Below are positions 2,282-44,148 of a stretch of 64,000 nt of DNA, piece after piece. The position numbers were made by a program, and so were the translations under genes. Under the pieces are notes generated by a model that saw nothing but the letters and a program-made list of their open reading frames with translations, was not told the origin of the DNA and did no database searches. Position 1 is the stretch's first letter, and the number at the start of each line of letters is the position of its first letter. Source of the stretch: Candidatus Woesearchaeota archaeon (GTDB lineage Archaea; Nanobdellota; Nanobdellia; Pacearchaeales; GW2011-AR1); assembly GCA_964466575.1 (NCBI GenBank), contig CAYXNP010000002.1, positions 30,913 through 94,912 of the forward strand, written 5' to 3'.

Positions 2282-3595
2282 TTAAGGAAAATCTATACAC
2301 ATTGGATCTTCATCTAAAGAGCCCATTGCGATTTCTTCGATTTGTCGAGCGTATTCACCATAAGTGCATCTTCCGCATTCTGCATTAACACTTATTCCCT
2401 TAAGTAATTCTCTATGTTTATCTGTTCCCCAAAATTCAAGAATTTTTTCTGGATTTGGAAAATGAGAAGTTAGCTTAAATCGTTGTTCAATTCTGTGGTC
2501 AGCACAGACATAAACGTGGCCGTCAGCACATGCTTGCAACATTAATGGTGCGCATACACAATTTTTGAAAGTGTGTATTACTCTAAATTCAGGGTCGTAT
2601 TTGTGCATTATTGTAAATACTCTAAAGTTTTCACCGTCGCCGAGGTCATGGCACTTTTCAAATAGTTCGTGTATTTTTTCAATATTATAATTTAATTCCA
2701 TTGCGTTTTTGAAGTCTTTTCTTTCCAAATCTGCCGGTCTTGCATGAAAATCCCTAACACCAATATCTTTTGCAAGTTTGGCGGCTTCATAGACGTCATG
2801 CCAGTTGTCTGGACGAATTAGGAATTTAAATGCAATGTCAATTTTACTTCCTGTTTCTTGTTTTTTTCTCATTAATAGGCGGAGGTTTTCAATAACTCTT
2901 TTGTATGTGTTTCCATTTCCATTTTCGTCCCCCATTTCTCGTTTGAATAATTCTCTAATTTTGTTAAATATTATTTCATTATTAACGTCGACGCCATGCA
3001 CTTTTTCGTAACATTCTTTTACTTTGTCAAAAGTTATATCACTTTCACCAAATCCATGAACTTTGTCGAATACTTCTTTTGAACCAGAATCAACTGAAAC
3101 ACCCACCCAACGACAATGCATCATTTGATTTGCTATTTCTTCATTGATGATGCTCCCATTTGTTGCAAATGAACATTGCATTCCTTTGCTCTTAATATAT
3201 TCTGGAAGTTTCCAAACATTTCTATTCATTAAAGGTTCTCCGCCGCCACCTAAACAAACTCCTTTAACTCCCCACTTTGCCGCGAAATCGATTAAATTTT
3301 TCAGATGTTGTTCTGTCATTAATTTCATATCTTTTGGAACTTGCTCTGGATTTAATGTAAGGTATCGTTGAGCATTGCAATGCTCGCATTTATAATTACA
3401 AATATGTGCGGGGTCTAAAGAAAGTTCTATTGGCGGAGGTAACTGTACTCCTGGAACTCCTTTTAACCATTGGGCAATTGGTTTATAGTGCGTGTGATAA
3501 TAAATTAAACCCTTATAAGAATTAAATGAATTATACTTGCTTTTATCGTTCCACTCGCGCTCTTTTTTTCTTATGTCTATCATTTGATTTTTCAA
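2282..3595 (-). CDS. Radical SAM enzyme with a C-terminal SPASM-like Cys-rich domain.
   Basis: CNYKCEHCNAQ is a CxxxCxxC motif near residue 70 and GGGEPL is the glycine-rich SAM motif. The C-terminal cysteines (CVCAPLMLQACADGHVYVCADH...ECGRCTYGE) look like the auxiliary Fe-S cluster region of a SPASM or twitch domain. Confidence 0.75.
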   Translation of the reverse strand: MKNQMIDIRKKEREWNDKSKYNSFNSYKGLIYYHTHYKPIAQWLKGVPGVQLPPPIELSLDPAHICNYKCEHCNAQRYLTLNPEQVPKDMKLMTEQHLKNLIDFAAKWGVKGVCLGGGGEPLMNRNVWKLPEYIKSKGMQCSFATNGSIINEEIANQMMHCRWVGVSVDSGSKEVFDKVHGFGESDITFDKVKECYEKVHGVDVNNEIIFNKIRELFKREMGDENGNGNTYKRVIENLRLLMRKKQETGSKIDIAFKFLIRPDNWHDVYEAAKLAKDIGVRDFHARPADLERKDFKNAMELNYNIEKIHELFEKCHDLGDGENFRVFTIMHKYDPEFRVIHTFKNCVCAPLMLQACADGHVYVCADHRIEQRFKLTSHFPNPEKILEFWGTDKHRELLKGISVNAECGRCTYGEYARQIEEIAMGSLDEDPMCIDFP

Positions 3596-3694: not shown

Positions 3695-4198
3695 ATGATT
3701 ATAAACTTTGAAGATTTGTCAAAGATTAGAAATGAAAATATTAATAAAAAAATAGTTTTTTGTTCTGGAAGTTTTGATATTACTCATGTTGGGCATATTA
3801 TTTTTTTTGAAGAGTGTAATAAATATGGAAACATTCTTATTGTCGGTGTGGGAAGTGATAAAATGTTAAGATATCATAAGGGCGGCAATAGACCTATTTT
3901 AAATGAACATATACGATTGAAAACAATTGATAGCTTTAAGTGTGTTGATTATTCTTTTATTGATTCTGTATCTACGCCTGATGAACCTTTAATATTATTG
4001 AGATGTGTATTTGAGAGTTTAAAGCCAGATTTTTATTTAATTAACGATGATGCATTTGATATCCCCTATAGAGAAAGGGTTTGTGAGGAATTTAAAGTTA
4101 AATTGATTATATTAAAAAGGTGGTGCCCTCCTGAATTCGAAGATATTTCTACATCAAAAATAATAGAAAAAATAAAAAATTTAGATAAGAGTAATTAA
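3695..4198 (+). CDS. Cytidylyltransferase-like nucleotidyltransferase, resembling RfaE domain II or TagD with an HxGH motif.
   Basis: FCSGSFDITHVGH places the HxGH motif after a Gly-rich turn. The 167-aa size fits glycerol-3-P cytidylyltransferase or heptose-1-P adenylyltransferase domains. Confidence 0.65.
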   Translation: MIINFEDLSKIRNENINKKIVFCSGSFDITHVGHIIFFEECNKYGNILIVGVGSDKMLRYHKGGNRPILNEHIRLKTIDSFKCVDYSFIDSVSTPDEPLILLRCVFESLKPDFYLINDDAFDIPYRERVCEEFKVKLIILKRWCPPEFEDISTSKIIEKIKNLDKSN

Positions 4199-4238
4199 AC
4201 TAAATAATATTTAAAAAGAGATTTTTATTGGGAATTAA

Positions 4239-5705
4239 ATGGAGAAAATGTTGGATGTTCTTTTAGTTAATGCTGGAGGAATGAGAAAAAGAGTTTATCA
4301 GGAATTGAGCAGGGATTATTCTGCGATTGAGCCGCCATTTTGGGCTGCGTTGACTGCGGGTTTTGTTAGAAAAAAAGGATTTAGTGTTAAAATTCTCGAC
4401 GCTAATGCAGAAAATATTGATATTAAAGAAACAGTAGAGATAATAAAAGAACTTAATCCTAGATTTGTGAACATTATAGTTTATGGGCAACACCCTTCAG
4501 CATCAACCCAATTAATGGTTAGTGTTGGGAATTTATGCCGAGAAATAAAAAACAATGAACCCTTAAGAAAGATTTTATTGATAGGTTTGCATCCGTCTGC
4601 TTTGCCTGAAAAAACAATGAAGGAAGAAGTTTGTGATTATGTTTCGCAAGGAGAAGGATTTTATACAATTCTTGGATTATTGGAAAATAAAAACTTAAAT
4701 GAAATTCCTGGTTTGTGGTATAGGGAAAATAATTTAATAAAATCAAACGCGCCTGCTCCTTTAATTCAAGATTTAACAACTGAACTAAGTGATGTCGCTT
4801 GGGATTTACTGCCAATGGATAAATACAAAGCTCACAATTGGCATTGTTTGCATGATTTAGAATCGCGGGGAAGTTATGCTTCTTTATCAACAAGCTTGGG
4901 TTGCCCTTATAATTGTATTTTTTGCTGTATTAATTCGCCGTTTGGAAAATCTGGATATAGATGCTGGAGCCCTGAATGGGTATTGAAACAGCTTGATATT
5001 TTAGTTAAAGAATATAGTGTTAAAAATGTAAAGTTAATAGATGAACTGTTTGTTTTGAATCCGAAGCATTTTATGGAAATTTGCGACGGTGTTATTCAAA
5101 GAGGATATAAATTAAATTTTTGGGCTTATGCGAGGATTGATACTGTCAAGGAAGAACATTTAAGAAAAATGAAGCAAGCAGGAATTAATTGGCTTGCGTT
5201 AGGAATTGAATCTGCAAGTGAAGAAGTTAGGCAGGGTGCTGAGAAAGGCAGGTTTAATGAAACAGATATTGTAAATATTGTGAAAATGATTAAAGATGTT
5301 GATATTAATATTATTGGAAATTATATGTTCGGTTTGCCTGAAGATGATTTTCAATCAATGCAAGAAACATTAAAACTTTCTCTTGATTTAAATTGCGAGT
5401 TTGGGAATTTTTATTGTGCTTCTGCTTATCCTGGTTCAAAATTATATACTTGGGCAGTTGAAAATAATATTCAATTGCCAGAATCATGGGAAGGTTATGC
5501 TCAGCATAATTACAACTTTCTTTCTCTTCCAACAAAAACTTTGTCTCCCAAGGAGGTTCTTGAATATAGAGACTATGCTTTTGATGTTTATTTTAAGAAT
5601 CCAATATATTTGAAAATGATTGAAGAGCGATTTGGAATTGTTGCAAGAAAACATATTGAAGAAATGACAAAAATAAAATTGAAGAGAAAGTTGTTGGGCG
5701 ATTGA
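4239..5705 (+). CDS. Class B (B12-binding domain) radical SAM enzyme.
   Basis: The N-terminal segment VLLVNAGG...EPPFWAALTAGF...KILD resembles a cobalamin-binding fold. LGCPYNCIFCCIN is the CxxxCxxC motif, and the downstream region is a TIM-barrel-like domain of 488 aa. Confidence 0.85.
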   Translation: MEKMLDVLLVNAGGMRKRVYQELSRDYSAIEPPFWAALTAGFVRKKGFSVKILDANAENIDIKETVEIIKELNPRFVNIIVYGQHPSASTQLMVSVGNLCREIKNNEPLRKILLIGLHPSALPEKTMKEEVCDYVSQGEGFYTILGLLENKNLNEIPGLWYRENNLIKSNAPAPLIQDLTTELSDVAWDLLPMDKYKAHNWHCLHDLESRGSYASLSTSLGCPYNCIFCCINSPFGKSGYRCWSPEWVLKQLDILVKEYSVKNVKLIDELFVLNPKHFMEICDGVIQRGYKLNFWAYARIDTVKEEHLRKMKQAGINWLALGIESASEEVRQGAEKGRFNETDIVNIVKMIKDVDINIIGNYMFGLPEDDFQSMQETLKLSLDLNCEFGNFYCASAYPGSKLYTWAVENNIQLPESWEGYAQHNYNFLSLPTKTLSPKEVLEYRDYAFDVYFKNPIYLKMIEERFGIVARKHIEEMTKIKLKRKLLGD

Positions 5706-5759
5706 GATAAATATTATTACTACATAAATCTTTAAAAACAAATTGGAATTTTATGAAAT

Positions 5760-6473
5760 ATGGATTTTATTGAATATAATCAATTTGGAGAAGTTAAAAA
5801 AGAGATAAATGATCTGAAAATTAAAATGGATGAAATGAAATTAGTTCTTGAAAGAAATTTAAATAGTAATGGAAATGGTTTAACAAATCTGACAGCAGAG
5901 GATTTAATTGCTTTTGAAAATGACATTATTGAGATTTATGAAGCTGGAAAAATTAAGGCGCCTGTTCATTTTTGTAAAGGCAATGAAGAGCAACTTATTG
6001 AGATTTTTAAGAAAGTAGGAAAAGATGATTGGATTTTCTCGACGCATAGAAGTCATTATCATGCGTTATTAAAAGGTGTTGACCCATTGTGGTTGAAAAG
6101 AGAAATACTTGAAAAAAGAAGTATTCATATTAACAATAAAGAATATAAAACATTTACTTCTGCGATTGTCGGAGGAATTCTTCCTATTGCGCTTGGAGTT
6201 GCGCTTGCAATAAAACTAAAAAAAACAAACGAGAGAGTTTGGGCATTTGTCGGAGATATGTGTGCTGAAATGGGTGTTTTTCATGAATGTACAAAATATG
6301 CAAAAAGGCATAATTTGCCAATAACTTTTGTTGTAGAAGACAACAATTTAAGTGTTAACACTCCAACGCAAAAAGTTTGGGGTGAAAATGATTTTGGTAA
6401 TGCAAATATTATCAGATATAAATACAAAAGAATTTGTCCCCATCATGGTTCTGGAAAATGGGTGACTTTTTAA
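5760..6473 (+). CDS. Thiamine-diphosphate-dependent E1 alpha-like subunit (dehydrogenase E1 component family), minimal form.
   Basis: The TPP motif GDG-x26-NN reads VGDMCAEMGVFHECTKYAKRHNLPITFVVEDNN. HRSHYHAL resembles E1 alpha sequences. Confidence 0.7.
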   Translation: MDFIEYNQFGEVKKEINDLKIKMDEMKLVLERNLNSNGNGLTNLTAEDLIAFENDIIEIYEAGKIKAPVHFCKGNEEQLIEIFKKVGKDDWIFSTHRSHYHALLKGVDPLWLKREILEKRSIHINNKEYKTFTSAIVGGILPIALGVALAIKLKKTNERVWAFVGDMCAEMGVFHECTKYAKRHNLPITFVVEDNNLSVNTPTQKVWGENDFGNANIIRYKYKRICPHHGSGKWVTF

Positions 6474-6474
6474 A

Positions 6475-7035
6475 ATGAGTTACAAAGATGAAATAAAAAA
6501 AGCAATGACGATGTTAGGACAGCATCCGAAAACAATTTTTCTTGGACAAACAGTAGAATATTCTGGAAGTTGTATTTATGGGAGTTTAGAAGATGTTCCT
6601 AATGAAAAAAGAATTGAACTTCCAATTATCGAAGATACTCAAATGGGAATGTCTATTGGTTTAAGTTTGGAAGGATTTATTCCAATATCTATTTTTCCCA
6701 GGTTTGATTTTTTTATATGCGCTACTAATCAATTAGTAAATCACTTGGATAAAACTAGAGAGATGAGTAATGGGCGGTTTACTCCAAAAGTTATACTTAG
6801 AACAATGATAGGAGGTACAAATCCGCTTTATCCAGGAGTACAGCATTGTTCAGATTATACTGAAGCAATGAAACATTTTTTAAAAGATGTTGATGTTGTG
6901 AGTTTAACAAAAGAAGAAGATGTTATGTCTGTTTATAAAAGAGCTTTAGAAAGCGATAGGTCAACTTTAATTATTGAAGTAGCAGATTTATATAACGATG
7001 ATATTATTAGTGGTGAGAGAATAGGGAAGGATTAA
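6475..7035 (+). CDS. E1 beta-like / transketolase pyrimidine-binding-domain subunit, partner of 5760-6473.
   Basis: It starts 1 nt after the upstream stop. The size (186 aa) and sequence (IFLGQTVEYSGSCIYGS...PIIEDTQMGMSIGLS) fit a Transket_pyr-like domain. Confidence 0.6.
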   Translation: MSYKDEIKKAMTMLGQHPKTIFLGQTVEYSGSCIYGSLEDVPNEKRIELPIIEDTQMGMSIGLSLEGFIPISIFPRFDFFICATNQLVNHLDKTREMSNGRFTPKVILRTMIGGTNPLYPGVQHCSDYTEAMKHFLKDVDVVSLTKEEDVMSVYKRALESDRSTLIIEVADLYNDDIISGERIGKD

Positions 7036-7041
7036 ATTAAA

Positions 7042-7668
7042 ATGTTTAATGGAAAATTTGTTTGGTTGAAGGGTGCAATAAAAAAGTGGTTTTTGTTATT
7101 TGGTTATGAAATAGTTAAAGATAATAACGGCAATCATTTGAAGAAAATTTATTCTTCTAAATCTGCAATTCAGTTTATGAAAGAAAATTACAATAAAAAA
7201 GATTTAATTGTTGCTGAAATTGGGGTGTGGAAAGGTCACACTACAGAACATATAATAAAAACATTACCGATAAAAAGAATTTATGCAATTGATTCTTGGG
7301 CCCCTTGGAGTTCAAGTGAACATAACGAAGAAATAATTCAAACTGCAATGAAAGAAGCTAAAAAGAAGTTATCAAAATATGGCAATAAAGTCATCATCAT
7401 AAAAAAATATTCAAAAGACGCAGTTAAAGATATTAAAGAAAAATTAGATTTTGTTTATATTGATGGCGACCATGATTATGAATTTGTTAAAGACGACATT
7501 GAACAATATTATAAACTTTTAAAAAAAGGAGGGGTTTTGTCTGGTGATGATATTGAAAATAGAAGATTACCTAATGGAGTTTTCAAAGCATTATCTGAAT
7601 TTTCAGTTAAGAATAAATTAGATGTCAAAATTGAAGGGAATAATTGGTGGTTGATAAAACCGGATTAG
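7042..7668 (+). CDS. Class I SAM-dependent methyltransferase, in the O-methyltransferase or Methyltransf_24 family (TylF/MycF-like).
   Basis: The SAM-binding region LIVAEIGVWKGHTT and the DGDHDYEFVKDD motif are typical of this family. Confidence 0.65.
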   Translation: MFNGKFVWLKGAIKKWFLLFGYEIVKDNNGNHLKKIYSSKSAIQFMKENYNKKDLIVAEIGVWKGHTTEHIIKTLPIKRIYAIDSWAPWSSSEHNEEIIQTAMKEAKKKLSKYGNKVIIIKKYSKDAVKDIKEKLDFVYIDGDHDYEFVKDDIEQYYKLLKKGGVLSGDDIENRRLPNGVFKALSEFSVKNKLDVKIEGNNWWLIKPD

Positions 7669-9692
7669 AAATATTTCCATTTCTTAAATGAATCAATAAT
7701 CGGGCGAGTGAATAAAATATCTTTTAGGTCGTGTCCCATTGCTGAAGAGACATTGCAAATATGGGTGCAATCGCATTTATGATTTTTAATTTGATTAAAT
7801 AATTTTCTAGCTGGTTGTGATTTTAATAATTGCTCTGGAGAATTTTCTTTAAGGTTTCCAATTTTTGGCTGAAGTTCGCAGATTCTTAATGAACCATCGC
7901 TTTCTAAGATTAAATCATTTGTTCCTGCATTGCATTTGAAGGGCCATTTTTTACCTTCGAGAACTTCCATTTGAGAAATTATTATATGTCTATCTCGAAT
8001 ATTAGTGTAAATTCTTTTCAATAAACTTTTATGTTTTTTGGCATTATAATATTTTCTTGCATTATATCTTAAATTATTAATTTTATTAAAATCTTTTTTG
8101 TTTGGAAGAGTCAATAAACCTTTATGTTCTCCTCTAAGTAAATCAAAAAAGTGGTCTGATAAATCAAGTTTTTTTACTAATTCAATTAATGCTGGAAGGT
8201 CATTGATGTTTTCATTTGTGATAACTGTATTCACTGTAAGATACTTGAGGTTTGGATGTATTTTTCTTAATTCATTCATTTTTTTTATGAACTGGATTGA
8301 TTTCTTAAAATTTCCCTTTATTCCTCGAAGAAAATCGTGGCGCGCTTCTAATCCATCTAAAGAACAATCAATTGCAAAATCAACATGTGGATATTTCTTT
8401 AAGACTTTTTCCATGTCAGTTACAACTTTATTTTCCATTAAACAATTAGTTGGTATGCTGATTAAATTTGGATTAGTATATTTTATAATTAAATCTATAA
8501 TTTCTGGGAAGTCTTTTCTTATGAATGGTTCGCCCCCAGAAAGCAAAACCTCTGAAAGGTTGTAAAATTTTGATAATATTTCTTCGATTTCCTTGAGAGA
8601 TAAATCATTATTTTTGTTTAAATCTTTCCAATAAAAACAATGTTTGCATTTTGAATTGCATTTTGTTGTTATGAAAAAAGTGACGCCGCTTAACTTCTTT
8701 TTGTTTACATTTTTAATAAAACCCAAGTATTTCTTTTCTATATTTCTTGTTCTTACTAAAAATGGAAATTCTATTGTGTCAAACATTTCAGAATCAGAAA
8801 TTTTTCTTTTGTCTTGAATGTATTTGCGTTTTTTAAGAGTTTGGTTTAATTTTTTTAAATTGTATAAATATGCTCTAAAGACTTCAATACCATGTTTTTT
8901 GAGTAATAATGTCTGAAAAAAGTCAGTTAATAAAAAAGGAGTATTTAGAATAATTGTTTTTGATTCGAAATTTTTTAATAGTGTTGTTAGTTTATTCCGT
9001 TTGTCTCTGTATGTTTCTTTTTTCATTGGCGCGTTTTTCATTGTATGGTGGCTTAAATGAAATGAAACTAAGTCAGAATTATAGACAACTTTCCAACCAG
9101 CAATGTTTGCTCTTAAACCTAAATCAGAGTCTTCAACACCATAATAATAATCAGAATCAAAACCGCCAATTTCTTGTACCATTTTTTTCCTAATTATTAA
9201 TGAGGCGCTTTTCAAATAACCAACTCTTCTAAAAGAATTGTATTGTCCGATATCTTTTTCTCCAAAACCAATGTCTGTTCCTCCCCCATTTCTTGCAAGA
9301 ATTCCTCCAGCAGCGTCTATTAAACCATCTGCTCTAATTATTTTTCCATTACACAAACCGACATCTAAATGAGAATCCATATATTTGACTGCATTTTTAA
9401 TCCACTCTTTTGTTAATTTTGCATCACTGTCCATGACTACAAAATACTCTGAATTTGACATTGACATGCCAATATTTCTTTTTTTGGAAGGACCTTCATT
9501 TGGTACATCTACAAAATTTATAGAAGAATAATTTTTTTTAATAAATTCTTTTGTATTGTCTGTTGAATCGTTGTCTAATAAATAAATTTTAATTTTCTTA
9601 TAAGTTTGATTATTTATTGAGTCTATACAATCTCCTAAAATGTTTTTATTATTATGTGAAACAATTATAACATCAACATTTGATTCTTTCAT
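7665..9692 (-). CDS. Fusion protein with an N-terminal GT2 glycosyltransferase and a C-terminal radical SAM/SPASM domain.
   Basis: The N-terminus reads VDVIIVSHNN...LLDNDSTDNT...VVMDSDAKL...YGVEDSDLGLR, a GT-A fold with DxD-like elements. Residue ~335 onward reads FFITTKCNSKCKHCFYW, a CxxxCxxC motif, followed by LSGGEPF, and the protein ends with Cys-rich CNAG...CELQ...CDCTHIC. The continuous ORF is 675 aa. Confidence 0.8.
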   Translation of the reverse strand: MKESNVDVIIVSHNNKNILGDCIDSINNQTYKKIKIYLLDNDSTDNTKEFIKKNYSSINFVDVPNEGPSKKRNIGMSMSNSEYFVVMDSDAKLTKEWIKNAVKYMDSHLDVGLCNGKIIRADGLIDAAGGILARNGGGTDIGFGEKDIGQYNSFRRVGYLKSASLIIRKKMVQEIGGFDSDYYYGVEDSDLGLRANIAGWKVVYNSDLVSFHLSHHTMKNAPMKKETYRDKRNKLTTLLKNFESKTIILNTPFLLTDFFQTLLLKKHGIEVFRAYLYNLKKLNQTLKKRKYIQDKRKISDSEMFDTIEFPFLVRTRNIEKKYLGFIKNVNKKKLSGVTFFITTKCNSKCKHCFYWKDLNKNNDLSLKEIEEILSKFYNLSEVLLSGGEPFIRKDFPEIIDLIIKYTNPNLISIPTNCLMENKVVTDMEKVLKKYPHVDFAIDCSLDGLEARHDFLRGIKGNFKKSIQFIKKMNELRKIHPNLKYLTVNTVITNENINDLPALIELVKKLDLSDHFFDLLRGEHKGLLTLPNKKDFNKINNLRYNARKYYNAKKHKSLLKRIYTNIRDRHIIISQMEVLEGKKWPFKCNAGTNDLILESDGSLRICELQPKIGNLKENSPEQLLKSQPARKLFNQIKNHKCDCTHICNVSSAMGHDLKDILFTRPIIDSFKKWKYF

Positions 9693-9810: not shown

Positions 9811-11196
9811 ATGGCAAAAGTTCTACTTGTTCAGCCTCATAATAATTTAAAAGAGAAGACAAATATTGTTGCTCCTCCGTCGAGTTTGATTATAGTAGCT
9901 ACATCAATACAGCACAAACATCCTGTTAAAATTTATGATAGAAATGTAGAACTGGGAGATGAGCGATTTTTTAAGATGCTTAAAGAATATAATCCTGATA
10001 TAATTGGATTTACAACAATGACTTCTACAATGTTATATGATATTGTTCATTTGGGTCCAAAAATTAAAGAGATTATGCCTAAGAAAATTATTATAATTGG
10101 AGGGGTGCATCCCAGTATTGAACCTGATTCTGTTTTGAATGAATCATATGTTGACTATATAATGAGAGGAGAAGGGGAAGAGGCTTTTTTGGAATTCTGT
10201 GATACTTTTGATAAAAATCCCAAGAAGTTGGGAACATTAAAAAATATTAATAAAAACCCTTTGAGACCATTTATGGATTTAAATATGGTTAAGTTTCCAA
10301 ATTATGATTTAGTTGATGTCAAGAAATATAGGCAGTTTTTTATTTTTACAAGCAGGGGATGCCCTGGAAGATGCACTTTTTGCTATAATATTGGTATGTG
10401 GGGAAAAGATGGAAATCCCTGTGTTAGGGTTTATGATACTGAGAAAACAAAAGCTTTGTTTAAAGAAGCAATTGAAAAATATAGTATAGTTGATTTTACA
10501 ATCAGCGACGAGAATTTTATGACATTTAAAAAAAGGAGTATTGAAGTTGGAGAGTTTCTTGCAAGAAATTACAAAGGAAAAATTAATTTCTTTATTTTTG
10601 GAAGGGCCGATTTTATGAAGAAAAATGAAGATGCGATTAAAGTCTTAAAAAAAGCCGGGCTTCATACAATTCAGATTGGTTCTGAAACAGGAAGTCAAAG
10701 AGTTCTAGATTTTCTTAATAAAAATATAAGTGTTGAAGTTCAAGCAGAGGCAATTGATATTTGCAGAAGAAACGGAGTTTTTAGTGATGCAAGTTTTATG
10801 ATTGGAATTCCGACAGAAACAATTGAAGAATTAAGAATGACTGAGAGATTTATTAGAACAACAAAACCAGACATCATGGATATTAAAATATTTAATCCAA
10901 TTCCTGGAACAAAAGTTTTTGATGATTTGGTTGAAGATGGAACAATAAAAAAGCCCAAAAATTTATTGGAATGGGCTGATTGGACTGGAAATTGGAGAGA
11001 TATGAAACATAATTTTAGTAAAATTCCTGATGCAGTATTATGGAAAATGGCAGAAAAATTTTGGGGGTATAATTACTATCGTTCTAGAATTAAAAAAGCG
11101 ATTTTTTGGATTCGAAAAGGCAGAATCAAATATGTCACAACAAAGATTAGACAGGGTTTAATTAAAGGTTATAATAAAGAGGGTCTAGAATTATAA
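9811..11196 (+). CDS. Class B (B12-binding domain) radical SAM enzyme.
   Basis: The N-domain reads VLLVQPHNN...PPSSLIIVAT...IIGGVHPS. SRGCPGRCTFCYN is the CxxxCxxC motif. Confidence 0.85.
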   Translation: MAKVLLVQPHNNLKEKTNIVAPPSSLIIVATSIQHKHPVKIYDRNVELGDERFFKMLKEYNPDIIGFTTMTSTMLYDIVHLGPKIKEIMPKKIIIIGGVHPSIEPDSVLNESYVDYIMRGEGEEAFLEFCDTFDKNPKKLGTLKNINKNPLRPFMDLNMVKFPNYDLVDVKKYRQFFIFTSRGCPGRCTFCYNIGMWGKDGNPCVRVYDTEKTKALFKEAIEKYSIVDFTISDENFMTFKKRSIEVGEFLARNYKGKINFFIFGRADFMKKNEDAIKVLKKAGLHTIQIGSETGSQRVLDFLNKNISVEVQAEAIDICRRNGVFSDASFMIGIPTETIEELRMTERFIRTTKPDIMDIKIFNPIPGTKVFDDLVEDGTIKKPKNLLEWADWTGNWRDMKHNFSKIPDAVLWKMAEKFWGYNYYRSRIKKAIFWIRKGRIKYVTTKIRQGLIKGYNKEGLEL

Positions 11197-12310: not shown

Positions 12311-13021
12311 TTATATTTTGTGGTTAATCTTCTGAAAATAATAATCTACATTAAACGTTCTTTTTATAGTGTAATACAATCTTTTGTGTTTTCTTAGACG
12401 TGGTTTTAGTATGTTGATTATTTTCCTTATTCTTGGATATGTGCTCTGAATAGTAATTCCTTTTTTTCTATCTTTGTAACTTTCATTTAATCTCTTGTCA
12501 ACATGATAAGGGGTGAATTCTTTGACGCCGAGAAATTTGAATAATTTGTTTAATTCACCTTGTTTATTTTGATTGTCCATATTAAAAATAAAAACATTTT
12601 TGCCAAACTCTTTTTTCCATGGTTCAATGAGTTCTTTTTGATTAAATTTTGGTTTCTTTGTCGGAAGAAGATCATGATATTTTGAAACATTATAATATGA
12701 TTTTGCCCTATCTTCTTCATTTCTTTCGTAGATTATTATTTTAGTGTTGGGAAATAATTTTTTTAATAATTTAGCAGAACGTTTTTTATCGATTATTAGT
12801 GTGCTTATTTCTCCAACTACTTTACTGAAGTCGCAATTTTTAAATTTTTTATAATAGTTTTTTAAGCCCATAATTTCATACTCTTCAGGGAAATAATTAA
12901 TTTCAGTAAGAAGATTAAATTTAGGTATGCTTATTTGAGGATGTTCATATAAGCAATTAACCAGCCAATTTGAACCTGTTCTTCCAAATCCGACACCAAT
13001 GAAATCTATTCTTAATTTCAT
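12311..13021 (-). CDS. Sulfotransferase-family protein.
   Basis: The 5'-PSB-like motif is GFGRTGSNWL and the 3'-PB-like motif is YERNEEDRAKSYY (RxxxxRxxS). Confidence 0.6.
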   Translation of the reverse strand: MKLRIDFIGVGFGRTGSNWLVNCLYEHPQISIPKFNLLTEINYFPEEYEIMGLKNYYKKFKNCDFSKVVGEISTLIIDKKRSAKLLKKLFPNTKIIIYERNEEDRAKSYYNVSKYHDLLPTKKPKFNQKELIEPWKKEFGKNVFIFNMDNQNKQGELNKLFKFLGVKEFTPYHVDKRLNESYKDRKKGITIQSTYPRIRKIINILKPRLRKHKRLYYTIKRTFNVDYYFQKINHKI

Positions 13022-13105: not shown

Positions 13106-14170
13106 ATGAATAAAAGGGTAAAGATTATTTGTACAATCGGACCGTCTTCTTCTAATTCAGATATATTGAATAAATTCAAAGAAAGGGGAGTTGATTATTT
13201 TAGAATAAATCTTTCTCATACTAATACGGAAGATATTGAAACTAAGATATTGGAATTAAAAAAATATGGGGTTCCAATAATCTTAGATACTGAAGGTCCC
13301 CAAGTTAGGACAGGAAATGTTGACGAAATACTCTTTAGAGAAGGAGATAGTGTGAGAGTTTACTCGAAAGAGGTTATGTGTGACTCAGAAAATTTATTTT
13401 TAACACCCCAAAGGATTGTAAATAGTTTTGAAGTTGGGGATGAAATTTCTCTTGCATTTGGTTCTGCAACTTTTGTGGTTGAAGATACTTCAAATCTTGA
13501 GAGTGACGGATTTATAATTTGTAAAGTATTGTTGGGTGGAGAGATTGGAAGAAAAAAAGCAGTGCATATCGACGGCCCGAATTTTCTTTTGCATGATTTT
13601 AGTGAGAAAGATATGTATGCAATTGAACTTGCTAAAAGACAAAGTATAAAATACTTTACTCTTTCATTTATGGAAAGTGCTGATTCTGTTCAAAAGATAA
13701 GGGACTTTTATCCAGATGCAATTCTTTATTCCAAAATAGAATCTAGGAAGGGATTGGTTAATTTTGATAGTATCCTTGAAACTTCAGATGGGATTTTAAT
13801 TGATAGGGGTGATTTGAGTAGCCATATCCCGATTCATAAAATTCCAGTGATACAAAAGCATTTGATTGAAAAATGTAGAAATAAGGGCAAGGACTTATTT
13901 GTAGCCACTGATACTCTTCAGAATATGTTTTCAAATCACAGACCGAATGCTGCAGATGCAAATGACATTGTAAATACTCTTTTAGACGGTGCAACAGGAA
14001 TAGCACTAACTAAAGAGACTGCAGTTGGTAAATATCCAATACAGACTGTAGAAATGATGAATAAGATCATTGATTATATAGAATATATCTCGGGTTTTGA
14101 CAGCCTTCACCACCCAGACATCTTGAAAAGTATTCTTGAAGAAAGTAAACCTAAGTCTTTAAAGAATTAA
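13106..14170 (+). CDS. Pyruvate-kinase-like barrel-domain protein that lacks the C-terminal alpha/beta domain. A divergent PK paralog.
   Basis: KIICTIGPSS, LDTEGPQVRTG and SKIESRKG (K-x-E) are conserved. LIDRGDLSSHIP replaces the canonical MVARGDLGVEIP. At 354 aa it is about 120 aa shorter than a genuine PK. Confidence 0.65.
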   Translation: MNKRVKIICTIGPSSSNSDILNKFKERGVDYFRINLSHTNTEDIETKILELKKYGVPIILDTEGPQVRTGNVDEILFREGDSVRVYSKEVMCDSENLFLTPQRIVNSFEVGDEISLAFGSATFVVEDTSNLESDGFIICKVLLGGEIGRKKAVHIDGPNFLLHDFSEKDMYAIELAKRQSIKYFTLSFMESADSVQKIRDFYPDAILYSKIESRKGLVNFDSILETSDGILIDRGDLSSHIPIHKIPVIQKHLIEKCRNKGKDLFVATDTLQNMFSNHRPNAADANDIVNTLLDGATGIALTKETAVGKYPIQTVEMMNKIIDYIEYISGFDSLHHPDILKSILEESKPKSLKN

Positions 14171-15461: not shown

Positions 15462-16481
15462 TTAGTTGTATTTGAAATAATTTAAAAAATTCAATTGTTT
15501 TTTTAATATTAAATTAAAGGGATATAATCTGCTTGGTTGAAATCCTTCTCTTTCTCTGCAATTTTTACAGATGTGGTTTTTTGGAAATGAATTTTCAATA
15601 TTTTGTTTTCTGAATTCTTGCATTTTCTTGCTGTTCCATATTTCTTTTAATGTTTGCTTGTTTAAATCTCCAAGAACTAATTTTGCATCGTAATCAAAAC
15701 AACAGGGCACAACTTTTCCGTCCCACAAAACAGTTAATTTTCCCCAAGGCCAAAAACAAGGGTAATAATATTTTCTTTTGAATTTATGCGAGTATTCGTC
15801 GGCTAATTTAGTTATGTTATCCATACTACCATCCCACGTGATAAAATCTTTGACTTCAACATGCTCTATTCCTTTTTTGTTAGACCATTTTTTCTTAAAT
15901 GAGTTAATTTCATTTTTAGTTTCTTTCATCCTTATTATTGCGATTGTTGTTTCTGGTAATTTTGATTTTCTTTTATTTTTTTCTTTTAAAAAATTATCAA
16001 TATTCTTAAGAGCGATATCATAATCCGCTAACCCTTTTCTTATCTTTTCATAAGTTTCTTTTGTAGCACCATCCAATGAAATATGCAAGAAGTCTAATTT
16101 TGAATCTAAAATTTCGTTGATTTTGTCTTTTGTTAAACTTGAGGGATTTGTCGAAAAAGATGCTTGAATTTTATATTTGTGGCATATTTTTATCATTTCC
16201 CCTATTTTTGGATGTAATAACGGATCTCCAAAATGATGCAAAACAATTCTAGAGTTATATTTCATTTGTTTTATTATTTTTTCAAATAATTTTATGTCCA
16301 TATATCCGATTTCTCGTTTCATGTAATTTCTTGGACACATGATACATTTCATTCCGCAAGCATTGGTTGGTTCAATATTGCTTATTGAAGGAAATGCTTT
16401 GACTATGAGTTTCTTATGAGAATAATCGTATCCTTTTTTCCATAGGTTGATTAATTTATTAAAAGTATTAACCATTTTCAT
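15462..16481 (-). CDS. Radical SAM/SPASM-domain enzyme.
   Basis: NACGMKCIMCPRN is a CxxxCxxC motif near the N-terminus. The C-terminal cysteines read VPCCFDYD...HICKNCRERE. Confidence 0.75.
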   Translation of the reverse strand: MKMVNTFNKLINLWKKGYDYSHKKLIVKAFPSISNIEPTNACGMKCIMCPRNYMKREIGYMDIKLFEKIIKQMKYNSRIVLHHFGDPLLHPKIGEMIKICHKYKIQASFSTNPSSLTKDKINEILDSKLDFLHISLDGATKETYEKIRKGLADYDIALKNIDNFLKEKNKRKSKLPETTIAIIRMKETKNEINSFKKKWSNKKGIEHVEVKDFITWDGSMDNITKLADEYSHKFKRKYYYPCFWPWGKLTVLWDGKVVPCCFDYDAKLVLGDLNKQTLKEIWNSKKMQEFRKQNIENSFPKNHICKNCREREGFQPSRLYPFNLILKKQLNFLNYFKYN

Positions 16482-18496: not shown

Positions 18497-20041
18497 ATGA
18501 GAATAATTCTTATATCGGCTGCGACGTTTCCGTCTGACCAAGGAATCAGAACTATTTCGGCAATTTTGAAAAAAGCTGGACACGACGTGAAAATCGTTTT
18601 TATGGCTTATTCAGAAGATTATTCCAAATTTTATCATAATAGGGAATTAAATCAATTAGTAAATATCTGCAAAAATGCAGATTTGATTGGAGTTAATTGT
18701 TATGTTTCGACTATGCCCCGAGCGATTCAAATTACAGGATTTTTGAAAAAGAAATTAAAAAAAGAAATTCCGATTGTTTGGGGTGGAATTCATCCGACGC
18801 TTTTTCCTCAAGATTGCATTAAATATGCAGACATTGTTTGCGTTGGCGACGGCGAAGATGCTGTTTTAGATTTGGCGAAGGCCATTGAAAATAAAAAACC
18901 AATTGATAAAATTCAAAACTTGTGGGTTAAAGATAAAAATGGTGAGATAGTAAAAAATCCTGTCCGTCCATTTATTGATAATCTTGATACTCTGCCTTTT
19001 GTGGATTACGATATAGAAGACCATTACATTTTGGAAAATCACAATTTGAGAAAATTTAAAGAAGAAGATTTGAATGGCCAAATATTCTTTTTGACAGGAA
19101 GGGGCTGTCCTTATGGCTGTACTTATTGCAGCAATAATCTTTTGAATGAGTTGTATAAAGGCAAATGCAAATCAATTGTAAGGTGGCACAGTGTCGACTA
19201 TATTATTGAGCATGTTTTATATTTAAAAAAACGATTTAAAACTTTGAGTTACTTTGATATTAGGGATGATACTTTTTCTTTGAGACCATTGAGCCAGATT
19301 CAGGAATTTTGTGAAAAGTATAAGGAAAAAGTTAATATGCGGTTCAAATGTCTTGGTGACCCGAAGACAATCTCTGAAGATAAAATTAAAGTTCTTGTCG
19401 ACGCTGGATGCACTGATATCATTATTGGAATCCAAGGCAATGAAAAAACTAACAGAGATATTTACAAAAGAGGGCAGACGAATGAACAAGTTTTGAAAGC
19501 CGGAAAAATTTTGAGTAAATACAAAAATAAATTGGCAGTGATGTATGATGTGATAACGTGCAATCCTTTTGAAGATGCGAAGGATGTAATTGACCTTATT
19601 CGACTTTTACAAATACTTCCTAAACCATATTATGTTTCTGTGAATAATCTGGTTTTTTTTCCTGGAACCGGCATTTATGAACGCGCCAAGATGAATCCTA
19701 AACTAAAAAAGATTGTTGAAGAAAGTTCTAAGTTAAATTATTGGGATAGGAATAAGCATATTTTATTGAAAAGGAAAGATATGTATCTTGTTTTGATTTT
19801 GAATTTAATGAGAGGTTCTGTGACTGAGAACAGATTTGGTTTAATGCCGAATAAATTAATTAATTATTTGTTAAAACCGTCGAGAATAAAATACAATTTA
19901 AATAATCCTGCTTTGACTTACATTGGATTGTCTTTTGTTAGTGTGATGGATTTAACGCGAGAAAGAATTGCGAAGCCGTTGTATCGTTCAACGCCGGTAA
20001 ATTTTAAAGTTTGGTATGATAAGATTCGTTATAGAGTTTAA
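18497..20041 (+). CDS. Class B (B12-binding domain) radical SAM enzyme.
   Basis: The N-domain reads IILISAATFPSDQG...VWGGIHPTLFP. GRGCPYGCTYCSNN is the CxxxCxxC motif. Confidence 0.85.
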   Translation: MRIILISAATFPSDQGIRTISAILKKAGHDVKIVFMAYSEDYSKFYHNRELNQLVNICKNADLIGVNCYVSTMPRAIQITGFLKKKLKKEIPIVWGGIHPTLFPQDCIKYADIVCVGDGEDAVLDLAKAIENKKPIDKIQNLWVKDKNGEIVKNPVRPFIDNLDTLPFVDYDIEDHYILENHNLRKFKEEDLNGQIFFLTGRGCPYGCTYCSNNLLNELYKGKCKSIVRWHSVDYIIEHVLYLKKRFKTLSYFDIRDDTFSLRPLSQIQEFCEKYKEKVNMRFKCLGDPKTISEDKIKVLVDAGCTDIIIGIQGNEKTNRDIYKRGQTNEQVLKAGKILSKYKNKLAVMYDVITCNPFEDAKDVIDLIRLLQILPKPYYVSVNNLVFFPGTGIYERAKMNPKLKKIVEESSKLNYWDRNKHILLKRKDMYLVLILNLMRGSVTENRFGLMPNKLINYLLKPSRIKYNLNNPALTYIGLSFVSVMDLTRERIAKPLYRSTPVNFKVWYDKIRYRV

Positions 20042-20953: not shown

Positions 20954-22141
20954 TTATACTACTTCAAAAATTAATTCTGCTGGGCCTTTTTGATAAAGTG
21001 TTTCGTCTACCATTTCTTTGTTTGCTTCTGGATTCATAGCTCCTTTATTTTTAATTCTTATAGTAGGATCTTTTGTTACATAACCAATTTGTTTTGCATC
21101 AATTCCATGAACTTTTGCAACACCAATAACTGCTTCTGGCTTTGGCGTGACGATTATCATTCCTTGTCCCATATTCCATGTTTTATATGCTTCTTCATCA
21201 GCTACATTTCCTAATGCTTGAGTATATAACATAAAGTCTGAAGGTTCAAAAGGTTCATCTATCACAGCCCCTAATCCAGAAGGTCTTAACACTCTTCCAA
21301 GTTTTCCTGGAACTCCTCCTCCTGTAATATGAGCAACTCCATGAATTTCAACTTTTGGTTCTCTGTCATATCCACCAAACATATCAACAACTGCAGCCGT
21401 ATAAATTTTCGAGGGAGTTAATGCTAAATCTGCTAAAGAATCATTACCAACTTTCCAAGAAACCTGATGCCAATTTTCTCCATGAGTATTTTTCATTATT
21501 CTTCTAACTAAAGATAATCCATTAGATCTGAATCCTTTTTCTCTTAATCCTACAAGCGAATCTCCTTCTTTAATTTCTCTTCCAGTAAACATTCTATCTT
21601 TTTTAGCAAACCAAATAACTGCTGCTCCCCAATTATAATTAAAATTTCCATAACCACTAACCCTATTCCCTAATTCTGCTACTTCTCCATTAACAATCGC
21701 AACATTTGCTGCTTTTGCAGCACCAATATATCCTTCTGCTAATTGTTTTACTTGCTCAATATAAATTTCATCTCCCCTTCCTAAAGAATTAACATCTAAT
21801 ATACTTCCAATTAAAACTGGCTCTGCGCCCCTAACAACAGCATCATCACATACCATTGCAAATAAGTCGTAAGCAATAGTTTTGTGGTTATTAACTCTTT
21901 CAGCTAATTCCATTTTAGTTCCAACGCCGTCAAATCCAATATTCATTAAAGTTCCAGCAGGTAAATTAGAAACATCAATAGCTCTAACTCCTGAAAAATC
22001 ATCAAAAGGAACAACCAATTCTCCTAATCTTCCTCTCCGATTATTCCATGTTTGTTTTGCAGCATTATATAAAATTTTAGAAACATCATCACCTAGCTCA
22101 ATATTAACTCCTGCTTCTGCATAAGTTGATTGTGTTGGCAT
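20954..22141 (-). CDS. purM: Phosphoribosylformylglycinamidine cyclo-ligase (AIR synthase).
   Basis: YAEAGVNIELGDD and GFDGVGTKMELAERVNNHKTIAYDLFAMVCDDAVVRGAEP align closely with E. coli PurM (DAGVDIDAGN...GTDGVGTKL...GIDLVAMCVNDLVVQGAEP). Confidence 0.85.
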   Translation of the reverse strand: MPTQSTYAEAGVNIELGDDVSKILYNAAKQTWNNRRGRLGELVVPFDDFSGVRAIDVSNLPAGTLMNIGFDGVGTKMELAERVNNHKTIAYDLFAMVCDDAVVRGAEPVLIGSILDVNSLGRGDEIYIEQVKQLAEGYIGAAKAANVAIVNGEVAELGNRVSGYGNFNYNWGAAVIWFAKKDRMFTGREIKEGDSLVGLREKGFRSNGLSLVRRIMKNTHGENWHQVSWKVGNDSLADLALTPSKIYTAAVVDMFGGYDREPKVEIHGVAHITGGGVPGKLGRVLRPSGLGAVIDEPFEPSDFMLYTQALGNVADEEAYKTWNMGQGMIIVTPKPEAVIGVAKVHGIDAKQIGYVTKDPTIRIKNKGAMNPEANKEMVDETLYQKGPAELIFEVV

Positions 22142-25020: not shown

Positions 25021-26481
25021 ATGAAAAGAAAGATTTATTTGGTTTATCCGCATGAAAAAACGCATTTTGTGCGGCTGTCTTTGTCTTTACTTAGTGTTGC
25101 GTCGACATTAGAGCCGGCTGGGTATGATGTTAAAATAATTGACATGAGATTTCAAGATCACTTGAAGGTTAATTTTTCAGATGCTCTTTTTGTTGGTTTG
25201 ACGAGTTTTACTGGAAGTAACTTGAAATCTGGATTAGAATTCTCAAGATATATCAAGAAAAAATATCCGAAGGTGCCGATTGTTTGGGGGGGTGTTCATG
25301 CTTCGATTTTGTCAATTCAGACAATTAGGAATGAGAATGTAGATATTATTGTTCGTGGCGAGGGCGACGTAACTGTTGTAGAGCTTGCTGATGCTTTATC
25401 TAAGGGAAAACCATTGAATAAAATAAATGGACTGACATTTAAAGATAAAGACGGCAAGATTGTTAATACGCCTGAAAGGGAATTTATTGATATGAATAAA
25501 CTGCCGAAGCCAGCATATCATCTTGTTGATTTGACTAAGGCTGAGACAACTCTTGGGCATTTTCCTTATAATGGGAGCCGAGGTTGTCCGCACAGATGCA
25601 AGTTTTGTTTTAATGTTAATTTTCATAAACGAAAATGGAGGGGAGTTACTGCTGAGAGAACTTTGGATGATATAGAGGATATAATTAGAGTTTCCGGAGC
25701 AAAGGGAATTGAATTTACAGAAGATAATTTTTTTACGAATAAGGAAAGGATTAGACAAATTGCGCAGGGTTTGATTGACAGGAAAATAAAAATTACTTGG
25801 GGGGCGGCTTGTCGAATGGATTATTTTGCTAAGTATGAAATTGAGTTTCTTAAGATGTTGAAGAGAAGTGGATTGGATTTAATGTCTGGCGGCGCAGAAT
25901 CAGGAAGTCAAAGAATTCTTGATTTGGTTGATAAGGATATAAAAGTTGAGGATACGATTGTTGCTGTTGCTAAGGCGAAAGAAGCGGGAATTATTCCGTG
26001 CTTGAGTTTTATTTATGGTGTTCCTAGTGAAACAAAAGAAGATGTTTTCAAGACGCTGAATTTGATTGATAAGTTAAAGAAAATAAATCCTGACACGCAG
26101 GTTAATGGAATTTTTGCGTTTACGATTTATCCTGGAGATCCGCTTGTTGAAGATTGTAAGAAGTTGGGATATAAAGAACCAAAGTCGTTGGAAGGTTGGG
26201 CGAATCATAATCTTTCTGATTTTAATACGCAGGTTTGGTTGAATAAAAAAGAGATTGCTTGGCTTGAGACGATTGGCGACATAATTCGGTTTGATTATTT
26301 TAATCAGACTGGAAGAGTTTATGATAATCTGAATGTGAAGTGGCATTATATTCCTTATTTGATTATGAGAGCTGTTTATACTGTTTCTGCGAGATTGAGA
26401 TGGAGACTAAGATATTTTCATCATGCATATGAATGGAGACTTTGGAGTTGGGTTAAGGAAAAGTATCTGGGGCATTTTTAG
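25021..26481 (+). CDS. Class B (B12-binding domain) radical SAM enzyme.
   Basis: The N-domain reads IYLVYPHEKT...VWGGVHASI. SRGCPHRCKFCFN is the CxxxCxxC motif. Confidence 0.85.
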   Translation: MKRKIYLVYPHEKTHFVRLSLSLLSVASTLEPAGYDVKIIDMRFQDHLKVNFSDALFVGLTSFTGSNLKSGLEFSRYIKKKYPKVPIVWGGVHASILSIQTIRNENVDIIVRGEGDVTVVELADALSKGKPLNKINGLTFKDKDGKIVNTPEREFIDMNKLPKPAYHLVDLTKAETTLGHFPYNGSRGCPHRCKFCFNVNFHKRKWRGVTAERTLDDIEDIIRVSGAKGIEFTEDNFFTNKERIRQIAQGLIDRKIKITWGAACRMDYFAKYEIEFLKMLKRSGLDLMSGGAESGSQRILDLVDKDIKVEDTIVAVAKAKEAGIIPCLSFIYGVPSETKEDVFKTLNLIDKLKKINPDTQVNGIFAFTIYPGDPLVEDCKKLGYKEPKSLEGWANHNLSDFNTQVWLNKKEIAWLETIGDIIRFDYFNQTGRVYDNLNVKWHYIPYLIMRAVYTVSARLRWRLRYFHHAYEWRLWSWVKEKYLGHF

Positions 26482-43339: not shown

Positions 43340-44148
43340 TTTTTTCTTAATATTTTATCTGCAATTTTTAAAATAAATTTCAACGGCCTTAAAACTGGTT
43401 CAAATGGAGAATAAACTAATCTTAATCTAAGAATACCTGAAAACATTTGAATTGGAACTTTTGTTAAATTTACTTTTGAATCTTGTTTGTCTTCCCAGAT
43501 TGTTGGAAATTCTTTTATTTTTAAATTAAATCTTCTTGCAAGATATAACAAATTAACATCAAAAGCCCATTCTGTTAATCTTAATTCAGGAGTTATCTTT
43601 TCAATTACTCTTTTTTTGAATAATTTGGCGCCGCATTGTGTGTCTCTGTAATTGAAAAAGAACATTGTTCTAACAAGAATATTAAACCCTCTGCTAACAA
43701 ATCTTCTTAAAAGAGTTTGTTTTGTTTTGATAACACTTTGTTTTAACCATCTGCTTGCGATTATTCCATCATAATGCTTAATGTTTTTTACTAAATCAAA
43801 AAAAGCATTTGGGGGAGTTGCCATATCAGCGTCAACAAATCCTATTAAATGTTTATCTGATTTTGATTTTTCTAATATATTTTTGAATCCTTCTGTAATT
43901 GCGAATCCTTTTCCACCAGGTCTTAAATCCATAATAACTATTTCACTATATTTCTTCTTTACTTGTTTGGTTATTTCTAAAGTTCTATCGGTTGTGTTAT
44001 TCAAAACAACAACAATTTCAAAATCTGAGATTTCTTTTGTTTTAACTTTTAGTTTGAAAAAACTGCAATAGGATTCTAATGTGCCTCTAATTCTTTTTTC
44101 TTCGTTGTATGCAGGTATTACTATACTCAATTTATCGAAAGTAATCAT
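43336..44148 (-). CDS. GT2-family glycosyltransferase.
   Basis: LSIVIPAYNEEKRI...VVVLNNTTDRT...FVDADMATPP gives the DxD and acceptor motifs. Confidence 0.8.
   Translation of the reverse strand: MITFDKLSIVIPAYNEEKRIRGTLESYCSFFKLKVKTKEISDFEIVVVLNNTTDRTLEITKQVKKKYSEIVIMDLRPGGKGFAITEGFKNILEKSKSDKHLIGFVDADMATPPNAFFDLVKNIKHYDGIIASRWLKQSVIKTKQTLLRRFVSRGFNILVRTMFFFNYRDTQCGAKLFKKRVIEKITPELRLTEWAFDVNLLYLARRFNLKIKEFPTIWEDKQDSKVNLTKVPIQMFSGILRLRLVYSPFEPVLRPLKFILKIADKILRKK

Follow-up and report, generated by a model that had tools for sequence, protein, structure and literature searches.

Two adjacent genes in a glycan-biosynthesis island of a Candidatus Woesearchaeota archaeon encode a thiamine diphosphate (ThDP) enzyme of the pyruvate dehydrogenase (PDH) E1 type that is cut down to one diphosphate-binding (PP) domain and one pyrimidine-binding (Pyr) domain. 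The pair lies in a 64,000-nucleotide stretch of contig CAYXNP010000002.1 (positions 30,913 to 94,912), referred to here as the window and numbered from its first nucleotide. The alpha-like gene (5760 to 6473, + strand) encodes 237 amino acids (aa), a PP domain preceded by an N-terminal helix of about 40 aa, and the beta-like gene (6475 to 7035, + strand) encodes 186 aa comprising a Pyr domain only. A single base separates the alpha stop codon (TAA, 6471 to 6473) from the beta ATG at 6475. Each subunit is roughly half as long as its canonical E1 counterpart, and among ThDP enzymes of the E1 lineage the pair appears to be the smallest. Judged from protein sequences and gene neighborhoods, a moderately likely function is that of a stand-alone carboligase, which would add a pyruvate-derived two-carbon (C2) unit to the carbonyl of a nucleotide sugar.

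Similarity to E1 enzymes was consistent across profile and structure comparisons. The alpha subunit matched Pfam E1_dh (1.4e-16) over profile positions 8 to 171 of 300 only, TPP_enzyme_C (3.6e-08), and NCBIfam PDH_E1_alph_y (2.8e-27), the last with 95.5 bits, far under the cutoff of 394. An AlphaFold model built from the family alignment (pLDDT 82) was matched by Foldseek to human PDH E1-alpha (3EXE_A, 5e-11), with the model covering under half of the E1-alpha target (TM-score by target length, 0.37 to 0.45). The alignment ends near residue 217 to 224 of the 365 residues in human E1-alpha, leaving the C-terminal third absent. In the family alignment, an invariant tail, YPH(H)GxGxWVxF, which includes P227-H228, replaces this canonical C-terminal region. 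At the other end, the helical extension of about 40 residues is confined to the closest relatives. The beta subunit matched Pfam Transket_pyr under the gathering score (2e-05) and the NCBIfam E1-beta model PRK09212 (7.7e-15) over positions 5 to 178 of 327. Its AlphaFold model, also from the family alignment (pLDDT 86), fits E1-beta only in the N-terminal Pyr domain. For human 3EXE_B, the TM-score was 0.82 by query length and 0.48 by target length over 177 columns, and E1-beta structures generally gave 0.46 to 0.48 by target length, meaning that half of the target was covered. No Transketolase_C or E2-binding domain was found in beta by Pfam, NCBIfam, or structure comparison.

Within these reduced chains the catalytic core is intact. 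The ThDP motif of alpha consists of G165-D166-M167 followed by E193-D194-N195-N196, that is, GDM...EDN(N) in the family alignment, which replaces the GDG-x26-NN motif given in a first-pass annotation of the same DNA. Across 24 family members the GDM, E193, N195, and the R97/H99 motif were invariant, with N195 being the only invariant residue of the NN. Both GDM...EDN and R97/H99 align with human E1-alpha. In beta, the invariant E53 aligns with the cofactor-activating glutamate of E1-beta, and H124, invariant in family alignments, aligns with E1-beta His128. The contig recurs in Rifle aquifer metagenomes, and identical copies of the sequence lie on at least 23 metagenome contigs. Chance similarity is excluded by the homology E values. 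The first-pass annotation had described a split E1 alpha/beta-like ThDP pair in a glycan cluster, and the positions and lengths it gave are those reported here.

What has been removed from the pair bears directly on function. Reductive acylation of lipoyl-E2 uses a histidine in the E1-alpha C-terminal region, and in branched-chain 2-oxo acid dehydrogenase (BCKDH) this residue, His291-alpha, is named in PDB titles. With the coupling parts lost, acyl hand-over to a lipoyl-E2 is impossible for the minimal pair. The human PDH counterpart of BCKDH His291-alpha is His263. A degenerate catabolic pyruvate or acetoin dehydrogenase E1 that makes acetyl-CoA is the reading implied by automatic labels ("pyruvate dehydrogenase E1" and "pyruvate/acetoin dehydrogenase"), and PDH E1 does provide the best PDB and NCBIfam matches. 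The E1 subunits of PDH, BCKDH, and acetoin dehydrogenase are also the closest sequences and folds, and they have the ThDP motif, activating glutamate, and beta histidine in common with the pair. However, these enzymes have an E2-binding domain, an alpha C-terminal region, and E2 and E3 genes, and the minimal pair has none of them. Its scores are far under family cutoffs (95 versus 394 bits), and its context throughout archaea, bacteria, and phages is one of glycan biosynthesis. Pfam scans of all sizeable open reading frames (ORFs) in the 64 kb revealed no E2, E3, or lipoyl gene, in agreement with the first-pass annotation, and no E2 or E3 was present among the annotated recurrent neighbor clusters of 80 related loci. 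A catabolic E1 was rejected on the missing E2-docking domain and the lack of E2/E3 genes; domain content has effectively refuted it already, and we give it almost no weight.

Evidence for a role in sugar metabolism came from those 80 related loci, in which ORFs were called, proteins were clustered, and only the commonest recurrent neighbor clusters were annotated. Co-occurrence counts rest on 72 to 73 loci, with about 10 high-GC loci left out (alpha ORF not called), and neighbor counts were restricted to the 33 loci in which alpha has 6 kb or more of sequence on either side. In 59 of 73 loci the beta gene comes right after alpha, and alpha-then-beta fusions occur in L028, L036, P0247, P0337, P0351, and phage S-SM2. 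This adjacency and the fusions indicate that alpha and beta constitute one enzyme. The most frequent neighbors were a GHMP kinase/nucleotidyltransferase (26/33 loci) and a nucleoside diphosphate-sugar short-chain dehydrogenase/reductase (SDR; 25/33), followed by a His-type DegT-like protein resembling ColD and a specific B12-binding radical S-adenosylmethionine (SAM) partner (13/33 each), a GmhA-like SIS protein (12/33), and an RmlC-like epimerase (11/33). Genes abutting the pair best match Gmd, GDP-fucose synthase (Fcl; up to 456 bits), the heptose-7-phosphate kinase HddA, and the guanylyltransferase HddC, which points to GDP-linked heptose or hexose pathways. The DegT-like neighbor contains FSFYxxH, with a histidine instead of the lysine that binds pyridoxal phosphate, and its best match (1.4e-50) is ColD (2GMS), the pyridoxamine phosphate (PMP)-dependent GDP-4-keto-6-deoxymannose 3-dehydratase. 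Gmd followed by a ColD-type enzyme yields a 3,6-dideoxy-4-keto sugar nucleotide, the class of acceptor branched by YerE in yersiniose biosynthesis (PMC12247030).

From what the sequences show directly (which domains and catalytic motifs are present, which E2-coupling parts are gone, where the genes lie, how they are fused, and how widely they occur), we infer pyruvate as the donor, a keto-sugar nucleotide as the acceptor, an order of steps, and a role for the radical SAM partner. In the proposed scheme, alpha (PP) and beta (Pyr) would assemble as an alpha2beta2 enzyme, as in E1, and pyruvate would be decarboxylated to hydroxyethylidene-ThDP. The C2 unit would then be added to the carbonyl of a nucleotide-activated, probably heptose-derived sugar, giving an acetyl or 1-hydroxyethyl C-branched higher sugar for a surface or N-linked glycan. 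The B12-binding radical SAM protein encoded at 4239 to 5705 could act before this step, in substrate preparation, or after it, in branch methylation or C-C ring closure. Support for such a carboligase comes from the intact catalytic core (GDM...EDN, R97/H99, E53, and H124), from the nucleotide-sugar context of relatives (SDR and GHMP/nucleotidyltransferase genes, Gmd-, Fcl-, HddA-, and HddC-like flanks, and the ColD-type neighbor), and from full-length E1-type pairs established as pyruvate-using C2 sugar-branching enzymes. In the window itself, an RfaE domain II-like nucleotidyltransferase and two GT9-family genes accompany the pair and point in the same direction.

A different use of the same cofactor chemistry would be ketol transfer like that of transketolase, or extension at a chain end. 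Here a C2 unit (glycolaldehyde or hydroxyethyl) would be placed on a terminal aldehyde or sugar phosphate, giving a C8/C9 or 1-deoxy-ketose precursor and no branch at C4. Heptose, split-transketolase, and transaldolase genes are frequent neighbors in the related loci, split transketolases have been proposed as keto-sugar branching enzymes in miharamycin, and the beta model superposes also on the Pyr domains of split transketolase and DXS. Alpha likewise matches DXP_synthase_N and transketolase models in Pfam and NCBIfam, but weakly, and E1 models far outscore them (60.7 versus 25.4 bits in Pfam, 95.5 versus 30 bits in NCBIfam). Split transketolases consist of Transketolase_N (about 280 aa) and Transket_pyr/Transketolase_C (about 315 aa), whereas the minimal pair has no C domain and reaches only 29.8 bits on transketolase models. 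Genuine split transketolases of this size, C domain included, have genes of their own in the same loci, and the tight adjacency of ColD-, Gmd-, and Fcl-like genes indicates a ring keto acceptor. Ketol transfer is considered unlikely.

Several observations weigh against C2 addition to a keto-sugar nucleotide. Among well-flanked loci, only about 40% carry the ColD-like gene, and likewise only about 40% carry the radical SAM partner. The window contains no SDR, ColD, GmhA, HddA, or other known keto-sugar-forming gene: when it was searched by tblastn with the SDR, ColD, GHMP, SIS, RmlC, ALS, and transketolase neighbor families of the 80 loci, only alpha matched. For the window locus, this absence leaves the main gap in the case. 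The kind of acceptor is taken from relatives, and in this organism it would have to be made through radical SAM chemistry or by genes outside the window. The donor could also be a ketose or another 2-oxo acid. In several SAR11 loci, moreover, the C4-branching job could belong to another ThDP enzyme. The known sugar-branching E1-like pairs, finally, are full length, and their analogy to the minimal pair does not amount to membership. The two-carbon sugar branching put forward in the first-pass annotation is the best-supported reading, relatives having the pair among Gmd-, Fcl-, and ColD-like genes; the window holds no keto-sugar genes to go with it.

The SAR11 loci in question, from single cells (L069, L071, L073, and L086), carry three ThDP systems side by side, at about 600 to 6500 in L069. 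Besides the minimal alpha/beta, there is a YerE/acetolactate synthase-like enzyme of 566 aa (cluster 14; best PDB match 8RPH, 2e-66) and an E1/transketolase-like pair of 279 and 305 aa with 26% identity to alpha. The same loci also hold the radical SAM partner and a ColD-like gene.

Comparison with characterized systems places the minimal pair near two kinds of sugar-branching enzyme. AviB1/AviB2 (avilamycin), Pau11/Pau12 (paulomycin), the aldgamycin E1 alpha/beta, and KbDH-alpha/beta (kibdelomycin) are likewise separate, adjacent E1-lineage alpha (PP) and beta (Pyr) genes. They are found in deoxy- or keto-sugar pathways, away from E2 and E3. Relatives of the minimal pair have Gmd-, Fcl-, ColD-, and RmlC-like neighbors, whereas the cluster in the window is glycan-related and has no known keto-sugar-forming gene. 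By their proposed or shown chemistry, the characterized pairs move a C2 unit from pyruvate onto a keto sugar and make C2 branches only. The first-pass annotation had likened the pair to AviB1/AviB2, but it is not a full-length pair of that type, as Pau11 and Pau12 are full length (325 and 345 aa) and members of the minimal family have about 195 and 178 aa. In addition, AviB1/AviB2-type pairs belong to actinomycete antibiotic clusters, whereas the minimal family is found in surface-glycan loci of archaea, many bacterial phyla, and phages, and it has a dedicated radical SAM partner, unlike the antibiotic pairs. YerE offers the same inferred reaction logic, a cell-surface glycan role, and an upstream 4,6-dehydratase followed by a His-type PMP 3-dehydratase, but it is a single ThDP/FAD chain of about 560 to 600 aa from the decarboxylase/acetolactate synthase family, and the minimal pair consists of two E1-type chains. 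According to a 2025 review, E1-type sugar-branching enzymes act mainly in specialized natural products and YerE-like enzymes serve cell-surface glycans. The minimal pair probably plays at the cell surface the part that E1-like C2 sugar-branching enzymes play in such products. The family would be new in architecture and ecology within a kind of enzyme, E1-like sugar branching, that is already known.

A conserved B12-binding radical SAM partner was absent from the first-pass annotation, which had recorded the gene correctly as a class B radical SAM flanking the pair upstream (4239 to 5705, + strand). Orthologues forming one orthogroup occur with alpha/beta at about 30 loci, where they lie one to six genes away and are 36 to 70% identical to the window protein; these loci belong to DPANN archaea, the candidate phyla radiation (CPR), SAR11, Verrucomicrobia, Nitrospirales, and others. 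By comparison, identity to the three other B12-binding radical SAM proteins of the window is about 23 to 24%. In one archaeal metagenome-assembled genome (L010), beta residues 3 to 178 are fused to a C-terminal orthologue of the radical SAM protein in a single 678-aa protein. The best profiles were HpnJ (151 bits) and BchE, both far under cutoffs, and both are C-C bond-forming or cyclizing enzymes. The best PDB match was AprD4, a sugar diol-dehydratase (1.5e-13). A role as an AprD4-like diol dehydratase that substitutes for ColD is not favored, since both genes are present in 8 of 33 loci and HpnJ and BchE outscore AprD4.

The second radical SAM gene of the module (2282 to 3595, - strand, 437 aa) is part of DPANN-type loci. 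Its orthologues, 54 to 63% identical, are near alpha/beta in L006, L009, L010, L011, and L025, and its best NCBIfam match is prokaryotic viperin at a sub-threshold 67 bits. Genes of this type and ColD-like genes were never found together (6 versus 17 of 31 loci; Fisher P = 0.004, a value confounded by phylogeny). As a lead only, it is possible that this protein provides a radical route to a keto or deoxy acceptor in place of ColD.

One specific product was considered that would join these components. Caryose is a 4,8-cyclo-3,9-dideoxy-nonose that had no known biosynthesis according to a 2022 review, and the review lists HpnJ-type radical SAM enzymes as proposed makers of cyclopentane carbocycles from sugars (PMC9092360). 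Formally, caryose equals a 3-deoxyheptose in which a two-carbon unit bridges C4 and C7 and ends in a methyl group. To build a bridged carbocyclic C9 sugar of this type, a cell would need heptose genes, a 3-dehydratase, a pyruvate-using ThDP carboligase, and a cyclizing radical SAM enzyme. The heptose activation genes, ColD-type 3-dehydratase, alpha/beta, and HpnJ/BchE-like B12-binding radical SAM protein of the conserved module might together do so. Alpha/beta would put a pyruvate-derived C2 unit on C4 of a 3-deoxy-4-keto-heptose, and the radical SAM protein would close the cyclopentane by linking C7 to the new carbonyl carbon. Such a route would explain why the sugar is 3-deoxy and has a 9-deoxy methyl, and why heptose genes and a fusion of beta to the radical SAM protein occur. 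Trinickia caryophylli was not among the 120 best matches listed, of thousands, for a Massilia alpha query. We regard a caryose-type product as speculative and rather improbable; if true, caryose-like sugars would gain a biosynthesis and would occur widely, with SAR11, Nitrospira, DPANN, CPR, and cyanophages among the carriers.

In the window, alpha and beta belong to a co-directional run of five genes (3695 to 7668) with gaps of 1 to 54 bases. The run begins with a small nucleotidyltransferase (3695 to 4198, + strand) that resembles RfaE domain II, the heptose-1-phosphate adenylyltransferase type (TIGR02199, 6.9e-22; CTP_transf_like, 2.1e-15), continues with the B12-binding radical SAM gene, alpha, and beta, and ends with a class I SAM methyltransferase (7042 to 7668, + strand; Methyltransf_24, 2.8e-17). 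Homologues of the nucleotidyltransferase are near alpha/beta in L018, L050, and L052. The first-pass annotation called the last gene an O-methyltransferase; it is a methyltransferase, and a sub-threshold TylF match (2.2e-4) is the sole basis for the O-type. No homologue of it was present in any of the 80 related loci, and it is a putative lineage-specific tailoring step. Upstream of the run, a 255-aa protein without a Pfam family (1422 to 2189, + strand) co-occurs with the module in some archaeal loci; its homologues include one directly upstream of alpha in L010 (60% identical) and one in L050 (32%).

This arrangement, in which a small cytidylyl/adenylyltransferase and a B12-binding radical SAM protein flank the pair, recalls phosphonate pathways, with Fom1 and Fom3 of fosfomycin biosynthesis as an analogy. 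A non-oxidative 2-oxo acid decarboxylase like ComDE or phosphonopyruvate decarboxylase would supply an aldehyde for a sulfonate, phosphonate, or other small decoration, which would then be nucleotide activated and methylated. ComDE, phosphonopyruvate decarboxylase, and AzcB/AzcC likewise place one PP and one Pyr domain on two chains of about 170 to 190 aa, AzcB/AzcC (9U8Q) is a distant structural match to beta, and the island also encodes a sulfotransferase and an FGE-sulfatase. However, ComDE-type enzymes belong to another superfamily, with Pyr (TPP_enzyme_N) first and PP (TPP_enzyme_C) second; the minimal pair is of the E1 fold family and has PP first and then Pyr. The context across the 80 loci consists of GDP-sugar enzymes, not phosphonate or sulfonate genes, and no phosphoenolpyruvate (PEP) mutase or other ICL/PEPM-family gene was found in the 64 kb. 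A phosphonate or sulfonate route, which the first-pass annotation had raised as an alternative, was rejected after Pfam scans of every large window ORF revealed no PEP mutase or ComDE-type genes, and we consider a decarboxylase of this kind very unlikely.

The glycan island surrounding the pair is most likely an N-glycosylation locus. This assignment is based on a 970-aa AglB/STT3 oligosaccharyltransferase (46399 to 49311, - strand) and, as further markers of N-glycosylation, a GT4-family phospho-sugar initiating transferase (45376 to 46389, - strand) and a flippase (44145 to 45374, - strand). About 60 kb around the pair contain flippases, many glycosyltransferases, including the two GT9 "heptosyltransferase"-family genes, a sulfotransferase, and eight radical SAM genes. 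By genome, the closest relatives are Pacearchaeota and Woesearchaeota (63 to 67% identity), which together with the N-glycosylation markers points to an archaeal host, most likely one of the DPANN. All eight radical SAM genes fall in a stretch of about 35 kb (2282 to 35842), four with B12-binding domains (4239 to 5705, 9811 to 11196, 18497 to 20041, and 25021 to 26481) and two with SPASM domains (7665 to 9692 and 15462 to 16481). Their density suggests heavy radical-based tailoring of the glycan. One of the SPASM proteins (7665 to 9692, - strand, 675 aa) is a GT2 glycosyltransferase fused to radical SAM/SPASM, an unusual physical joining of the two activities, with a 65% identical homologue in Woesearchaeota locus L008.

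Several other genes also lie in the island. A barrel-only pyruvate kinase of 354 aa (13106 to 14170, + strand) has a full PF00224 match and no C-terminal regulatory domain; it could be a source of pyruvate for the ThDP enzyme or a housekeeping gene. It adjoins the sulfotransferase (12311 to 13021, - strand), and both are conserved in L008 only. An AIR-synthase-family protein resembling PurM, SelD, and HypE (20954 to 22141, - strand) and the 590-aa FGE-sulfatase-domain protein (26545 to 28317, + strand) are encoded among glycosyltransferases. Scans of the window for tRNA genes and Rfam families were empty.

The size of the family across domains of life was likewise missing from the first-pass annotation. 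Searches for homologues yielded 4,338 relatives of alpha and 2,435 of beta, and the best matches, 60 to 77% identical, were nearly all about 195 aa (alpha) and 178 aa (beta). For comparison, the best matches among canonical, plasmid-borne E1-alpha proteins were only 33 to 37% identical over the core. When 1.84 billion representatives were scanned with HMMER, 107 clusters (50% identity) fell below 1e-30, and a scan of one genome per species identified 454 carrier species. Carriers include DPANN archaea, CPR/Patescibacteria, Chloroflexota, SAR11 Pelagibacter, Verrucomicrobiota, Nitrospirales, Burkholderiales isolates (Massilia), Actinomycetota, and Flavobacteriaceae. A bacterial subfamily of at least 7,900 proteins, more than 80% identical between Massilia, Herbaspirillum, and Nitrospira, is named at NCBI only as "thiamine pyrophosphate-dependent enzyme." Phage carriers are the cyanophages S-SM2 and P-TIM68 and an uncultured 735-kb phage (LR756501), at 38 to 42% identity to the window alpha. 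The phage copy is an alpha-beta fusion labeled "transketolase central region-containing protein," and in S-SM2 (SSM2_198; L087, 8977 to 10185) it is encoded among genes labeled phosphoheptose isomerase, bifunctional heptose kinase/adenylyltransferase, sugar kinase, and sugar epimerases. Some alphas were interrupted by inteins or joined to other domains: P0251 contains Intein_splicing and Hint domains, P0254 has a LAGLIDADG domain, and P0314 is an APH-type kinase fused to alpha.

Database labels for the family include "pyruvate dehydrogenase E1 component alpha subunit," "TPP-dependent pyruvate/acetoin dehydrogenase," and "transketolase central region," and a literature search found no publication that describes the minimal E1 family, a ThDP enzyme together with heptose, or the S-SM2 gene. 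A very large family is carried under such labels across DPANN, CPR, SAR11, Nitrospira, Verrucomicrobia, Burkholderiales, and cyanophages. Some of the "pyruvate dehydrogenase" calls in metabolic reconstructions of DPANN archaea and Woesearchaeota, and some of the "transketolase" calls in phages, may instead represent a glycan enzyme. If the proposed function is correct, the pair would represent a compact ketone-accepting carboligase of interest for biocatalysis and an example of a ThDP/radical SAM partnership, and new C-branched or higher-carbon sugars would be predicted on the surfaces of very abundant microbes.

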